6,829 nucleotides of DNA from a virus. Its lineage: Duplodnaviria; Heunggongvirae; Uroviricota; Caudoviricetes. Each line of letters begins with the position of its first letter. Position 1 is the first letter of the stretch. The position numbers and the translations under genes were made by a program. The stretch lies in IMG/VR virus record IMGVR_UViG_2778261463_000018. One strand, 5' to 3'. Positions 1 through 2,871 of the stretch are shown piece by piece. Below the pieces are notes generated by a model, which was not told the DNA's origin, did not search any database, and worked only from the letters and a program-made list of their open reading frames with translations.

Positions 1-1230
1 ATGCGCAGAGCACTTAACAAACTGAGCGATACACAGCTAAGGAAAATCAACGGCACACCCGCCCAAAAAACAGCCTTTCTTAATGACGGTGGAAACCTGA
101 CCGTCAGGCATTCAACCAGCGGCCTTTTAACCTGGTATTTCACTTACAGGGCCGGAACGGGAAGGGGCGCACCACCGGAACGCATTAAGCTGGGAAATTA
201 TCCTGATCTGAGCCTGAAATCAGCCAGGGAAAAAGCCGCCCAGTGTCGCGCATGGCTGGCTGAGGGGAAAAATCCACGTCATGAGATGAATTACACCGTA
301 CAGGAAGCGTTAAAGCCTGTAACGGTTGGCGATGCGCTCACCTACTGGCTTGAGTCGTACGCAAAGGAAAACCGTGTGGATTATGACCCACTGAAAAAGC
401 GGCTAAATAATCACGTAATACAGCACATTGGCCCTATGCCGCTGGATAAATGCGAGCTACGGCACTGGCTGGCCTGTTTTGATCGGGTGGCAAAGCAAGC
501 CCCTGTTTCCGCCGGGTTCCTGCTACAGACATGCAAACAGGCGCTTAAGTTCTGCCGGAAGCGGCGCTATGCAATCAGCAACGTTCTTGATGATATGAGT
601 GTGGCTGACGTTGGGAAAAAACCGGATATAAGTCAGCGTGTCTTAAGTAACAAAGAACTTGGCGAATTATTGCAGGCACTGGACAAAAAAATATTTTCCC
701 CTTACTACGTCGCGTTAATCCGCCTCCTGATTGTTTTCGGATGCCGGACAGTAGAACTGAGGTTATCGGAGATCGGCGAGTGGGATTTTACCGAAATGCT
801 CTGGACCGTTCCGAAGGAGCACAGCAAAACGAAGGTAGCCATATTCCGGCCCATACCGGAAGCGATACTGCCGTTCGTCACGCAGCTGGTGGAGCAGAAC
901 AGGCACACGGACTTATTGCTGGGGGAAGTGAAACAGGAAACCAGCGTGTCGCAGTACGGCAGATTAGTGCACAGGAGGCTTAAACACCCTCACTGGTCAC
1001 TGCATGACATCCGGCGCACCTTTACAACGATGCTGAACGATTTAGGCGTGGATCCTCACGTCGTGGAGCAGCTTACAGGCCACCAGATGCCAGGAATGCA
1101 GCGAGTTTATAATCATTCCCGTTATCTGGATGCGAAACGCAATGCGCTGGATATGTGGGTGGAGCGGTTGGAGATACTGGCGGGAGCACATGAAAACGTA
1201 ACCACGCTACCAGTAGCCAGAAGAAAATAA
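1..1230 (+). CDS. int: Tyrosine site-specific integrase, P4/CP4-57 IntA-like (409 aa; start at window edge, may extend upstream)
   Basis: Long ORF ending TAA 1228-1230. N-terminal LSDTQLRKI...GGNLTVRHSTSG...YFTYR region typical of P4-family integrase N-terminal domains; C-terminal catalytic signature LHDIRRTF (H-x-x-R) and LTGHQ...VYNHSRY (catalytic Tyr region). Confidence 0.9.
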   Translation: MRRALNKLSDTQLRKINGTPAQKTAFLNDGGNLTVRHSTSGLLTWYFTYRAGTGRGAPPERIKLGNYPDLSLKSAREKAAQCRAWLAEGKNPRHEMNYTVQEALKPVTVGDALTYWLESYAKENRVDYDPLKKRLNNHVIQHIGPMPLDKCELRHWLACFDRVAKQAPVSAGFLLQTCKQALKFCRKRRYAISNVLDDMSVADVGKKPDISQRVLSNKELGELLQALDKKIFSPYYVALIRLLIVFGCRTVELRLSEIGEWDFTEMLWTVPKEHSKTKVAIFRPIPEAILPFVTQLVEQNRHTDLLLGEVKQETSVSQYGRLVHRRLKHPHWSLHDIRRTFTTMLNDLGVDPHVVEQLTGHQMPGMQRVYNHSRYLDAKRNALDMWVERLEILAGAHENVTTLPVARRK

Positions 1231-1604: not shown

Positions 1605-1793
1605 GTGTTAAGCACTGATCGGTTTATACGTGAAAAAGAATGCGAAAAGCTAACAGGCCTTAGCCGCTCATGCCGCTACCGCCTGGAAAAGGCCGGACAA
1701 TTCCCATCACGGCGTAAGCTGGGCGGTCGTTCCGTTGGCTGGTCTTTATCCGAAGTTCTGGCATGGAAGGAAAGCTGCGAGGCAGTTCACTAA
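1605..1793 (+). CDS. alpA: AlpA-family (phage Vis/AlpA-type) HTH transcriptional regulator / excision regulator, 62 aa, GTG start
   Basis: GTG start at 1605 with strong SD AAAGGGGG 1592-1599; sequence CEKLTGLSRSCRYRLEKAGQFPSRRKLGGRSVGWSLSEVLAWKESC fits the AlpA/Vis signature (tGlSrstiyr...FP...lg.r.vgW...ev..W); located directly downstream of int. Confidence 0.85.
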   Translation: MLSTDRFIREKECEKLTGLSRSCRYRLEKAGQFPSRRKLGGRSVGWSLSEVLAWKESCEAVH

Positions 1794-1800
1794 AAAGACT

Positions 1801-1817
1801 GGCGGCACACAGCCGCC
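1801..1817. terminator. GC hairpin GGCGGC-acaca-GCCGCC between alpA stop and the convergent minus-strand units; possible bidirectional terminator
   Basis: 6-bp all-GC stem, 5-nt loop, read directly; on the minus strand it is followed by AGUCUUUUUA; on the plus strand no U-tract follows, so alpA termination here would be weak. Confidence 0.3.
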
Positions 1818-1934
1818 ACCCATCCACTAATACAGAGATTTAACCATGAAGACTGGATATACGCCCGAACAGGGGCGGGGCTTCGTTCGGCCTTGTGAAA
1901 CTGAAAAACAACAAAATCGCGGTTTTTCAGACAT

Positions 1935-1962
1935 AAAAAAAGCGGCCCCGATAAGGAGCCGC
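1935..1962 (-). terminator. Rho-independent terminator (minus strand): GCGGCUCC-uuauc-GGGGCCGC followed by UUUUUUU
   Basis: 8-bp GC-rich stem (one G-U wobble), 5-nt loop, 7-U tract (complement of A-run 1935-1941); read directly. Confidence 0.6.
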
Positions 1963-2008
1963 CTTTCTGAACAATTAACCTACTGCGCAAAAAATGAATA
2001 TGAGCAGT
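1935..2008 (-). ncRNA. Candidate ~70-nt small RNA (promoter-to-terminator unit with no start codon)
   Basis: Bounded by an extended -10 element (TGaTATAAT, + coords 2020-2012) and an intrinsic terminator (1962-1935); the predicted transcript contains no AUG; lies immediately downstream of the terminator of the Arc-like operon, so it is an independent unit. Confidence 0.4.
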
Positions 2009-2011
2009 GGG

Positions 2012-2020
2012 ATTATATCA
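2012..2020 (-). promoter_or_regulatory. Extended -10 promoter element TGaTATAAT (minus strand) for the candidate sRNA
   Basis: Reverse complement of + strand 2011-2020 GATTATATCA reads TGATATAATC: perfect TATAAT with TG at -15/-14. No good -35, which is permissible for extended -10 promoters. Confidence 0.4.
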
Positions 2021-2058
2021 ACCGTGTGGCGAAGCGCCACAATTGCCGGATAACGGGC

Positions 2059-2086
2059 AAAGAAAAGGCCACCTGTCACGGTGGCC
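2059..2086 (-). terminator. Rho-independent terminator of the Arc-like/63-aa operon: GGCCACC-gugaca-GGUGGCC followed by UUUUCUUU
   Basis: 7-bp GC stem, 6-nt loop, U-rich tract (complement of 2059-2066), located 35 nt after the stop of the 63-aa ORF. Confidence 0.55.
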
Positions 2087-2120
2087 AATGTGATCAGTGT
2101 CCTGGCTTGCTGGTGGATTG

Positions 2121-2312
2121 TCAGCCAGGTGGGCGGTTTTTGTTTGCTTTTAAGCGCCGAGGGTATTTCTCGACAAAAGGATCAAGGGCGAACTTATCAG
2201 GAACTTTAAGATTTTCAGTACGGGTTAATGCCTTATTTATTTCCCTGCGGGTTTTCTCACGCTGGCGCATGATAATTGATAATGCTTTATTTTGTAGTTC
2301 CTGGTTATTCAT
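2121..2312 (-). CDS. Hypothetical 63-aa highly charged (K/R/E-rich) protein co-transcribed with the Arc-like repressor
   Basis: ATG at 2312 with SD AGGTGA 5 nt upstream (the track's 66-aa version starts at an upstream GTG with no SD); 57 nt downstream of the Arc-like stop; followed by an intrinsic terminator. No recognisable motif. Confidence 0.5.
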   Translation of the reverse strand: MNNQELQNKALSIIMRQREKTRREINKALTRTENLKVPDKFALDPFVEKYPRRLKANKNRPPG

Positions 2313-2369
2313 AATTATCACCTTTAAAACAATGCGCCGCAGTACCTCACACCACGGCGCTGATAGTTT

Positions 2370-2543
2370 TTATCCTTTGGGTTCTATGCCGCGTTGCTGT
2401 AATTCTTTGCGGAGAACGCGTTTAATCCAAGTGGCTAAAGATGTGTCGCCATCGGCCTTAGCTGCTTCTTCTAGCTGCGCTCTGAAGTCTTCCGGTAATC
2501 GCATTTGGTATGGAGGCGAACGTTTTTCTAATGGTGTTGACAT
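2370..2543 (-). CDS. Arc/MetJ-type ribbon-helix-helix DNA-binding protein, 57 aa (not in ORF track, below length cutoff)
   Basis: Minus-strand ORF MSTPLEKRSPPYQMRLPEDFRAQLEEAAKADGDTSLATWIKRVLRKELQQRGIEPKG: N-terminal arm, beta-strand-like YQMRLPEDF, then two helices, matching the Arc pattern (PQFNLRWPREV...helix A...RSVNSEIYQRV). SD GAAGGG; start codon abuts a palindromic operator. Confidence 0.7.
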   Translation of the reverse strand: MSTPLEKRSPPYQMRLPEDFRAQLEEAAKADGDTSLATWIKRVLRKELQQRGIEPKG

Positions 2544-2555
2544 GGTAATTACCCT
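2542..2555. promoter_or_regulatory. Operator O1: ATGGTAATTACCcT (perfect 10-bp core palindrome GGTAATTACC 2544-2553) overlapping the SD/start codon of the Arc-like gene
   Basis: Read directly; the 14-mer ACATGGTAATTACC at 2540-2553 is repeated exactly at 2570-2583. Confidence 0.55.
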
Positions 2556-2571
2556 TCATTACTATACCTAC

Positions 2572-2585
2572 ATGGTAATTACCAT
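2572..2585. promoter_or_regulatory. Operator O2: ATGGTAATTACCAT, perfect 14-bp palindrome, centre 30 bp from O1
   Basis: Exact self-reverse-complement; three helical turns from O1, suggesting cooperative binding by a dimer/tetramer of an RHH repressor. Confidence 0.55.
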
Positions 2586-2611
2586 TGTACTTGCCATTAC
2601 ACAAAAATCAA
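2584..2611 (-). promoter_or_regulatory. Candidate sigma70 promoter of the Arc-like operon (TTGATT-N16-TACAAT on minus strand)
   Basis: -35 TTGATT (+ coords 2611-2606), 16-bp spacer, -10 TACAAT (2589-2584); -10 overlaps operator O2 and the predicted start site falls inside it, as expected for autorepression. Confidence 0.35.
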
Positions 2612-2644
2612 CGCCCCGCAGTGCTGGGAACACATACGGGGCGT
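2611..2644. promoter_or_regulatory. Stem-loop ACGCCCCG-(18 nt)-CGGGGCGT between the operator/promoter region and the first plus-strand operon gene
   Basis: 8-bp GC-rich inverted repeat read directly; on the minus strand it is followed by UGAUUUUUGUG (terminator-like insulator); on the plus strand it would sit in the operon leader. Loop is large, so uncertain. Confidence 0.25.
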
Positions 2645-2673
2645 CTAACCAACAACGTAAACTAGGAGCCGTT

Positions 2674-2871
2674 ATGGTTGCCGTAAATCATATACCACAC
2701 CTTGTACACACACAAACCGCCTTTGTGTGGCGTTTTCTGGCACTGAGTGCCGGAGAATCTCAAATTATCCACGTGACCGCCTGGACAGAACGCGAAGCGC
2801 GTAACCGTTGCCCGTCCGGTTGTGTCGCTGTATTCGCCGCCCGTATTCGTCAGGAGGTGTGCCATGATTAA
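2674..2871 (+). CDS. Hypothetical protein, 65 aa (first gene of plus-strand operon)
   Basis: ATG 2674 with strong SD AGGAG 2664-2668 (5-nt spacing); stop TAA 2869-2871 overlaps the next start. It is the only supported part of the track's 341-aa ORF. Confidence 0.5.
   Translation: MVAVNHIPHLVHTQTAFVWRFLALSAGESQIIHVTAWTEREARNRCPSGCVAVFAARIRQEVCHD

Follow-up and report, generated by a model that had tools for sequence, protein, structure and literature searches.

A predicted antisense small RNA gene convergent with alpA in the regulatory region of Escherichia coli PICI/cf-PICI phage satellites

At the left end of a phage satellite of Escherichia coli, a short non-coding unit that faces alpA from the opposite strand is likely a real antisense small RNA gene, as judged from its own sequence and from that of its relatives, and this sRNA gene is conserved and apparently undescribed. 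That it is an independently transcribed gene of the PICI/cf-PICI regulatory region that brakes the read-through from alpA is a proposal to which we give about even chances, and for the mode of action that could go with it, i.e. pairing with the alpA read-through transcript, then block or cleavage and early termination, the chances appear even or slightly lower. In Gram-negative PICIs, the global repressor is unclear, and AlpA is the activator that is induced by the helper phage (founding paper, PMC6092414). For the negative control of these islands, the sRNA behind alpA is a concrete candidate that can be mutated, and further candidates for such a control are an Arc-like repressor, which has paired operators, and the open long frame that shows no amino-acid constraint. 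The island family is present in roughly a fifth of the complete E. coli genomes, O157:H7 and Nissle 1917 included.

The RNA unit and its surroundings

The window, by which we mean the whole stretch of 6,829 nt that was analysed, represents the left end of a PICI/cf-PICI (capsid-forming) phage satellite of E. coli. The features needed for the argument are the following, in coordinates of the window.

1-1230, plus strand: tyrosine integrase gene (int)
1605-1793, plus strand: alpA, an activator/excisionase gene, convergent with the sRNA (Pfam Phage_AlpA, E = 5e-18)
1800-1818, minus strand: second terminator, which abuts the alpA stop codon
1846-2871, plus strand: open frame of 341 aa, the antisense partner of the sRNA, which lies opposite codons 31-54
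1935-2005, minus strand: predicted sRNA of about 71 nt, with start at G2005 as deduced from where the -10 hexamer lies, and 3' end falling within the T-run
1935-1962, minus strand: predicted intrinsic terminator with 8-bp stem, 5-nt loop and seven U
1960-1987, minus strand: conserved central RNA segment, CGCAGTAGGTTAATTGTTCAGAAAGGCG
2012-2020, minus strand: extended -10 element TGATATAAT, 6 nt ahead of the predicted start
2025-2041: perfect palindrome TGTGGCG-AAG-CGCCACA, which covers the -35 region of the sRNA promoter
2067-2086, minus strand: terminator of the leftward Arc-like operon, which insulates the sRNA unit from upstream transcription
2321-2121, minus strand: 66-aa ORF, second of a leftward pair with the Arc-like gene
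2543-2370, minus strand: gene of an Arc-like ribbon-helix-helix repressor (PHROG 228 'Arc-like repressor', E = 1.5e-6)

The Arc-like gene, the product of which is named YlcI/YnfO family protein in RefSeq, is the first gene of the leftward operon whose end adjoins the sRNA unit, and the rightward genes further on in the window comprise the Icd-like gene and the genes of a RepA helicase and an SSB. The strain sequence NZ_CP029741 is identical to the window over 1800-2150, and its island goes on to PerC, the major capsid protein, a head decoration protein and a head-tail connector. In O157:H7, the island copy is the prophage Sp7 of strain Sakai, which corresponds to EcCIEDL933 in EDL933, and the family also occurs in Nissle 1917. 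Start sites of alpA have been mapped in EDL933 under most of the conditions tested (supplement to PMC10469882).

The initial annotation of this DNA had placed an extended -10 element on the minus strand, and it is indeed present there (TGATATAAT, 2020-2012). The motif TGNTATAAT has a single copy in the window against 0.17 copies expected, and at least one copy is found in 33 of 200 shuffles, so that the motif is not significant alone and its significance rests on its conservation. The promoter in the window has no match to a -35 element, and a generic promoter and terminator scan of the window detected neither the -10 element nor the hairpin, the former because of the missing -35 match, and the latter presumably because the stem can extend into the T-run, which leaves too few T. 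The palindrome over the -35 region may be an operator. In relatives, one of its halves varies, or ATGGTC..GACCAC is found instead, with the symmetry kept, and no second copy of it was found across the window, e.g. near the alpA promoter.

The predicted RNA contains no ATG, in agreement with the initial statement that no AUG exists in the interval, and there is no coding signature in any of the six frames. Covariance model R1, which is described below, gives the stretch 1935-2005 a score of 91.4 bits. For most of the central segment (about 1987-1966), little or no pairing is predicted, and its final GCG (1962-1960) opens the stem of the terminator, in which GCGGCTCC (1962-1955) pairs with GGGGCCGC (1949-1942) around the loop TTATC (1954-1950), followed by the T-run at 1941-1935. 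This terminator had been described as a textbook example with an 8-bp GC stem; its place, the 5-nt loop and the seven T stand, but the stem is not purely G-C, as it consists of seven G-C pairs and one U.G pair. The fold of the 81-nt stretch has an energy of -30.3 kcal/mol with z = -5.35, which was equalled by none of 200 shuffles. In the minus direction, the terminator at 1800-1818 would catch any read-through past the sRNA terminator.

Conservation of promoter, core and hairpin

The element is widespread and its position is constant. With a 111-nt query (window 1925-2035), matches were obtained in 1092 of the 5426 complete E. coli genomes, and many of these matches span only the 3' 64 nt of the query, i.e. 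the core and the terminator. Covariance model R1, which was built from 17 variants, found the element in all 69 of 69 IMG/VR viral loci, which had been picked solely by an encoded AlpA relative, and the element lies on the strand opposite to alpA every time. In every context that was inspected, it is located just downstream of alpA and convergent with it, and the surrounding genes are mosaic. With a strict core pattern, a search of species-representative genomes yielded Shigella flexneri only. Two types of islands, A and B, differ in length by 12 nt, and the central segment GGUUAAUUGUUCAGAAAGG is strongly conserved across both despite their differing flanks, whereas the segment varies in islands of type C and in distant islands.

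The promoter is retained even where its surroundings are not. Type-A islands have TGATATAA[T/C] in 72 of 72 loci, with variable neighbouring bases, and the terminator at 2067-2086 is part of a conserved type-A module (window 1937-2086). Type-B islands (O157, Nissle) have TTGCCC-17-TATCAT, and type-C islands have TTCACT-17-TATAAT with a terminator just upstream as in type A. There are hence three non-alignable upstream contexts, each of them with a good sigma-70-type promoter at equal distance from the core, and three of the promoters of relatives were called independently by promoter scan. In 12 distant islands, the AlpA proteins of which are 62-66% identical, the core match is lost. Ten of these 12 have, in this order, the alpA stop, a start codon, an A-run with a GC hairpin, which the other strand reads as a terminator, and, 50-105 nt inside, a promoter. 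This promoter is TTGACC-17-TATCCT preceded by TG, or TTGACC-17-TACGAT, and it is homologous to that of type B (TTGACCACCAGC vs TTGCCCACCAGC), with a diverged RNA body behind it. Because of this homology, the distant promoter does not constitute an independent fourth case.

The conserved promoter, together with the co-varying terminator, the real upstream terminator at 2086-2067 and the lack of a coding signature, argues for a separate non-coding minus-strand unit of about 70 nt, as had been proposed at the outset. It had also been considered that the region might turn out to be the 3' UTR of a longer minus-strand transcript. Such an arrangement does exist in the distant island L202, where the equivalent hairpin follows 30 nt after the end of a ribbon-helix-helix gene and an own promoter is absent, but in the window, the unit is set apart from the upstream operon by a terminator and by its own promoter. 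A related explanation is that the element is a terminator or insulator only, which would serve to end the leftward repressor operon and to protect alpA and int from antisense transcription, that the -10-like motif is incidental, and that no discrete small RNA is of importance. The three minus-direction terminators in a row (2086-2067, 1962-1935 and 1818-1800) would fit to this, as would the hairpin of L202 that follows the ribbon-helix-helix gene after 30 nt without an own promoter, and the Hfq-crosslinking catalogue of O157 Sakai, in which no sRNA is listed in prophage Sp7 and thus none from this island. However, an insulator leaves unexplained the conserved 45-nt segment upstream of the terminator, the promoter that is kept at a fixed distance in the three non-alignable contexts and the type-B-homologous one, and the extra terminator that is found just upstream of the promoter in types A and C, which is why we regard this explanation as quite unlikely.

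The hairpin itself has changed in a manner that retains pairing. In the alignment of variants, 98.9% of the cells are paired, and three pairs have changed on both sides (C-G to U-A, C-G to A-U, and one swap between two alleles). Between the main alleles, of which there are two, one base is lost per arm and the loop is closed into GCAA, and the stem still has 8 bp. The covariation score is 0.406 as compared to 0.203 in shuffles, with none of 500 shuffles reaching 0.406 and slid controls all far lower, from an alignment that was fitted to the model and hence favours the structure. Only in the minus-strand RNA is the pairing kept with the fixed U.G pair and with most single C-to-U changes, which are opposite G, and the energy of the hairpin is -19.2 kcal/mol in the minus-strand RNA versus -13.1 kcal/mol in the plus-strand RNA, i.e. 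about 6 kcal/mol weaker in the latter, in which there is an internal C.A mismatch and no U tail. The pairing changes and the strand asymmetry together suggest that the hairpin is under selection as a terminator of the minus direction, and as it is predicted to act in this direction only, rightward transcripts should pass it. The examination of conservation and covariance across related islands that had been suggested in the initial annotation has thus turned out in favour of the unit, since the -10 element and the terminator are conserved and the hairpin co-varies. By this comparative evidence, the predicted sRNA unit is real, with the reservation that the sequences share descent and that the alignment used for counting pairs was fitted to the model, both of which inflate the apparent support.

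Three further structures were considered and dismissed. The first stem of the 81-nt fold draws on bases upstream of the likely start site, a 5' hairpin of type B is disrupted in the commonest type-B variant, and a small hairpin in the middle is weak and does not co-vary.

The open frame on the opposite strand

According to the initial annotation, the unit was an orphan in an interval for which the ORF track shows nothing. Neither of these points can be maintained, as the 341-aa plus-strand ORF 1846-2871 spans the interval, and the RNA is antisense to the 5' part of this long plus frame, which is open in most related islands. The start of the frame (ATG 1846, MKTGYTPEQGRGFVRP...) is what remains of the N-terminus of an Ant/Bro-type gene, and its end is formed by an Icd-like domain (NCBIfam NF033153, residues 293-336). 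In type-C islands, the Ant/Bro-type gene is intact (266 aa), and the plus-strand gene stops about 20 nt short of the element. In RefSeq, 'hypothetical' or 'Icd-like' pseudogene calls are placed over the element, as in NZ_CP029741, where a plus-strand pseudo-CDS is annotated over the sRNA interval. This has a bearing on annotation, as such pseudogene calls currently overlie the sRNA element.

It could be supposed that the interval belongs to a Bro/Eta-type protein that runs into the Icd-like domain, and that the signals on the minus strand are by-products of this coding. Of 56 unique variants, 55 have a plus frame that is open over the element, and in most islands this frame continues into the Icd-like domain: 68 of 104 distinct islands have no stop in the plus frame from the element to the Icd motif, with spans from 572 to 1568 nt in 61 different lengths, and the other two plus frames of the 104 islands contain a median of about 20 stops, with a minimum of 3. 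In the distant island L206, the frame is likewise open, with 421 codons. Coding would also agree with the genuine Bro-N domain (Pfam E = 2.2e-14) of the L024-type islands, which ends inside the hairpin, the hairpin there encoding K-S-A-P-L-P-E-R, and with the 12-nt length difference of types A and B, which is a multiple of three. The substitution pattern speaks against it, however. Over 1846-2120, the synonymous fraction is between 0.17 and 0.28 in all six frames and amounts to 0.21 in the long plus frame, as in the non-coding frames, whereas it is 0.69 and 0.73 in the true frames of the Icd-like gene and alpA, respectively, and no three-base periodicity was found in the variable columns. The translation of the long frame is rich in Cys, Arg and Ser, which is as expected for the antisense of real genes, the frame lying antisense to the real Arc-like gene with the codons exactly in register, and it has no family match outside the last ~60 residues. 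In addition, the changes in the hairpin are compensatory at the RNA level. We therefore regard a coding function of the interval as very improbable. For the same lack of a coding signature in the substitution pattern, coding by the minus-strand ORFs 1790-1990 and 1827-1934 was rejected along with that by the plus frame.

As the frame is open and yet lacks amino-acid constraint, it is its openness that looks selected, and not the amino-acid sequence. Roughly one island in three lacks the open long frame. An antisense RNA gene can coexist with an open frame.

The distance between the sRNA and the start of the frame differs among the islands. Islands of the L004 and L005 types, as well as the distant ones, have the start codon of the frame about 5-10 nt past the 3' end of the sRNA, so that the sRNA would pair from about +8. 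The distant islands and the L005 type have an SD-like motif ahead of this start, which is weak in the L004 type. In the window, the pairing of the sRNA begins 89 nt downstream of ATG 1846, and a block of ribosome loading thus would not be the universal mode.

Proposed role, alternatives and related systems

The complementarity of the sRNA to any rightward transcript coming out of alpA is perfect. Two ideas on the function had been put forward, a cis-antisense brake on the read-through from alpA and a trans-acting regulator like that of P4, and the brake appears to be the better-fitting of the two, given that the unit is always convergent and that its terminator is predicted to be a minus-only one. 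In such a brake, a constitutive-looking extended -10 promoter would drive an RNA of about 71 nt that ends at the minus-only terminator, rightward transcripts from the alpA promoter would read through the sRNA terminator, and the sRNA would pair perfectly with these read-through transcripts. In the relatives with a close start codon, pairing from about +8 could block the loading of ribosomes, and in the window, where pairing would extend over codons 31-54, a cleavage of the duplex would be more likely. The long frame would then be untranslated and the transcript exposed to premature, Rho-type termination, and convergent transcription itself may add to the effect. This would establish a threshold, as weak basal transcription of alpA would fall short of the Icd-like and replication genes, and strong transcription, induced by the helper and self-activated by AlpA, could titrate or overrun the sRNA.

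Several observations count against a brake. The Hfq-crosslinking catalogue shows no sRNA in Sakai Sp7, the only partners of the sRNA in type-C islands would be a 3' UTR or a read-through transcript, the core is conserved beyond the needs of a purely cis-acting antisense RNA, and the geometry varies by island type, with the long frame being closed in about a third of the islands.

The effect might be exerted by transcription as such, i.e. the collision of convergent polymerases would matter and the RNA product would not. The convergent promoters are ~400 nt apart or less, the -10 element is strong and extended, and the promoter is kept even where the RNA body diverges, all of which would be in line with interference. 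On the other hand, the transcribed unit has just 50-105 nt and ends at a strong terminator, which makes the collision zone small, and there is also the conservation and co-variation of terminator and RNA body, so that we hold it for decidedly improbable that collision is what matters. Transcriptional interference could also operate alongside RNA pairing.

The conserved segment also calls to mind a base-pairing sRNA that acts in trans, with an unpaired seed for mRNAs of the host or of helper phages, in which case the antisense position would be secondary. The architecture, in which a terminator with its U tail comes after an unpaired seed, resembles that of an Hfq-type sRNA, and the strong conservation of GGUUAAUUGUUCAGAAAGG in type-A and type-B islands with different flanks also counts in favour of a seed. 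Scans for duplexes with the whole sRNA are dominated by the GC hairpin, but in a seed-only scan of 14 kb of the island, the energies were no better than those of shuffled seeds, and the longest complementarity to phage lambda is 14 nt, as compared to 13-21 nt in shuffles. The target prediction that had been recommended in the initial annotation has thus given nothing better than shuffled controls in the island and lambda. Moreover, type-C and distant islands retain the architecture with an altered segment, and there is no Hfq-bound peak in Sakai Sp7. From the scans of island and lambda and from these observations, a function in trans is considered unlikely.

The idea of a P4-like regulator was examined by comparison with known RNA families. 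An Rfam scan of the window found no family match, C4 and isrK included (no C4/isrK hit at E <= 1), and with P4 as positive control, C4 (RF01695) and isrK (RF01394) are recognized with 74.9 and 60.8 bits, respectively. At gathering score, an Rfam scan of 11 related and 12 distant islands yielded tRNA only, and model R1 has no match in P4 and lambda. The sRNA is thus not a member of the P4 CI/P1 C4 families, and with the lack of a site above shuffles in the island or lambda, the suggestion of a trans-acting P4-like regulator is not supported. The sole Rfam hit in the window, isrD (E = 0.99, 2096-2061), was discarded as a chance resemblance to a terminator, as it lies on the neighbouring one.

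Among the classical cis-antisense RNAs, it is probably the sar RNA of phage P22 that comes closest in its setting. P22 sar is a cis-antisense RNA of about 70 nt that is made from a promoter of its own and ended by an intrinsic terminator, and its sequence is complementary to the region where the opposed gene starts. It is encoded in immI (arc, ant, mnt, sar), where it was reportedly described by Liao, Wu, Susskind and McClure in Genes Dev in 1987. The island sRNA resembles sar in size, in its predicted cis-antisense nature and in having an own promoter and an intrinsic terminator, and both are located in the immunity region of a mobile element, together with an Arc-type repressor and an antirepressor-type gene. 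In island relatives, the sRNA abuts the start codon of the plus frame, and the neighbouring gene in type C is Ant/Bro-like. Unlike sar, the target of which is ant, the sRNA of the islands would have as target the long frame downstream of alpA, and the overlap in the window begins only 89 nt into this frame. The likeness is one of setting, and no sequence relationship is claimed.

Other short constitutive antisense RNAs with a strong 3' hairpin are OOP of lambda and RNA-OUT of IS10, which oppose the transcript of a switch gene and set a threshold. The island sRNA shares with them its shortness, the strong terminal hairpin and the antisense position. The differences lie in the site of overlap, which is the 3' end of cII in case of OOP and the ribosome-binding site of the transposase gene in case of RNA-OUT, and in the long leader frame that is translated through, to which neither OOP nor RNA-OUT is tied.

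Such a leader frame is known from P4, in which the long frame eta contains kil and is translated only from the transcript of the upstream vis gene (AlpA-like), and in which eta translation prevents termination (PMC10111431). As would be the case in the island, the CI RNA of P4 and the C4 RNA of P1/P7 represent an RNA-based control in the immunity region of a satellite or phage, upstream of a toxic gene of the Icd/Kil type. CI and C4 are processed from the strand of their own targets and pair with separate target sites, whereas the sRNA of the island lies on the opposite strand, has its own promoter, and has no separate target site in the island above shuffled controls. It is a possible, if rather doubtful, extension of the brake that Gram-negative PICI/cf-PICI islands have an RNA-based immunity in which the constitutive sRNA at the head of the spacer frame would decide about the translation of this frame, and hence about the survival of the transcript in face of Rho, and thereby set the threshold of induction, an analogue of P4 CI/eta-kil and P1 c4-icd that would be made of unrelated parts. 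With such an immunity, the frame would be open only for the ribosomes that carry alpA transcripts across the antisense repressor operon and on to the Icd-like and replication genes. For some PICIs, C4/isrK-type immunity RNAs are mentioned in one PICI paper, and our literature search for small or antisense RNAs of PICIs found none described at this position, nor did a search for the core sequence find it in any paper.

In the same strains, there are other sRNAs of about 50-80 nt that are encoded on islands or prophages and that have intrinsic terminators, namely Esr41 (Rfam RF02676) and the EcOnc sRNAs (Tree et al. 2014, PMC4104026). EcOnc33 (~71 nt, Sakai 1,557,089) had come into question by its size and was rejected, as it sits beside the sialate esterase gene of another prophage. 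With Esr41 in SpLE1, EcOnc33 in Sp6, and none of them in Sp7, these sRNAs belong to other loci than the island sRNA.

Open frame and pseudogene calls over the sRNA element

From just 3' of alpA, a stop-free frame runs antisense through the Arc-like operon and into the Icd-like domain, and an equivalent frame is found in the distant island L206. In four related islands (L001, L003, L004 and L005), RefSeq has placed pseudogenes across the sRNA element.

1846-2871, plus strand: stop-free long frame
L206 1104-2369: equivalent stop-free frame
L001 7047-7190: pseudogene call spanning the sRNA element
L003 3550-4143: pseudogene call spanning the sRNA element
L004 3586-4065: pseudogene call spanning the sRNA element
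L005 3876-4109: pseudogene call spanning the sRNA element

The long frame stays open in 68 of the 104 distinct islands, at varied lengths, and is similar to the nested frames of P4 eta/kil. It is nevertheless free of amino-acid constraint, and its translation has a composition typical for the antisense of real genes. The pseudogenes are labelled either "hypothetical" or "Icd-like" and are flagged "missing C-terminus"; rather than decayed genes, they seem to be side effects of the frame's openness.

The sRNA locus and its surroundings in other islands

Between alpA and the sRNA terminator lies a block that is missing in the Nissle-type and TUM9812-type islands, and that contains a terminator adjoining the alpA stop as well as a gene remnant, the N-terminus of which matches an intact 266-aa gene in the related island L190 (647-1447).

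1797-1935: block missing in the two island types
1818-1800, minus strand: terminator in minus direction
ATG 1846: remnant start of an Ant/Bro-type gene

In the distant island L202, a ribbon-helix-helix repressor gene ends 30 nt ahead of the equivalent terminator without a separate promoter, and the antisense segment there (minus strand, about 30-100 nt downstream of alpA) simply belongs to the repressor mRNA as its 3' UTR, an arrangement that is possibly ancestral. The sRNA covariance model gave weak matches (E = 0.003-0.05) on the minus strand of the distant islands L204, L208, L211 and L212, at positions 27-243, more than 2 kb upstream (left) of alpA. Their layout resembles that of the sRNA element, with a GAACUGAUAC...AAAAAGGCGC hairpin and then a U-run; they may be related to it or may just be terminators.

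In the 24 loci of the L009 type, a small ORF on the plus strand lies just outside the sRNA terminator. It encodes a hydrophobic stretch (MTYDQSSGKHEILQKWKMKIFIVLVGKNKKRP...) and crosses the terminator in a frame different from that of the long ORF.

Candidate regulatory sites

Two copies of ACATGGTAATTACC(C/A)TT, each containing the palindrome GGTAATTACC, are placed between two divergent promoters, one for the Arc-like gene and the other for the Icd-like operon; they are probably operators of the Arc-like repressor. The int-alpA interval holds three direct repeats and a perfect inverted repeat, which are candidate binding sites controlling the alpA promoter.

2540-2556 and 2570-2586: ACATGGTAATTACC(C/A)TT copies, spaced by 30 bp
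1279-1322 and 1417-1445: direct repeat ACAACGNNGAACAA in three copies, and the 12-nt inverted repeat (AAAGGCATAAAA / TTTTATGCCTTT)
2360-2334, minus strand: 12-bp hairpin in the interval separating the Arc-like gene from the 66-aa ORF

The hairpin, which might act in attenuation or as a linker for recombination, lies in one of the few blocks (2321-2376) common to nearly all of the mosaic islands, with 87-97% identity and differing flanks.
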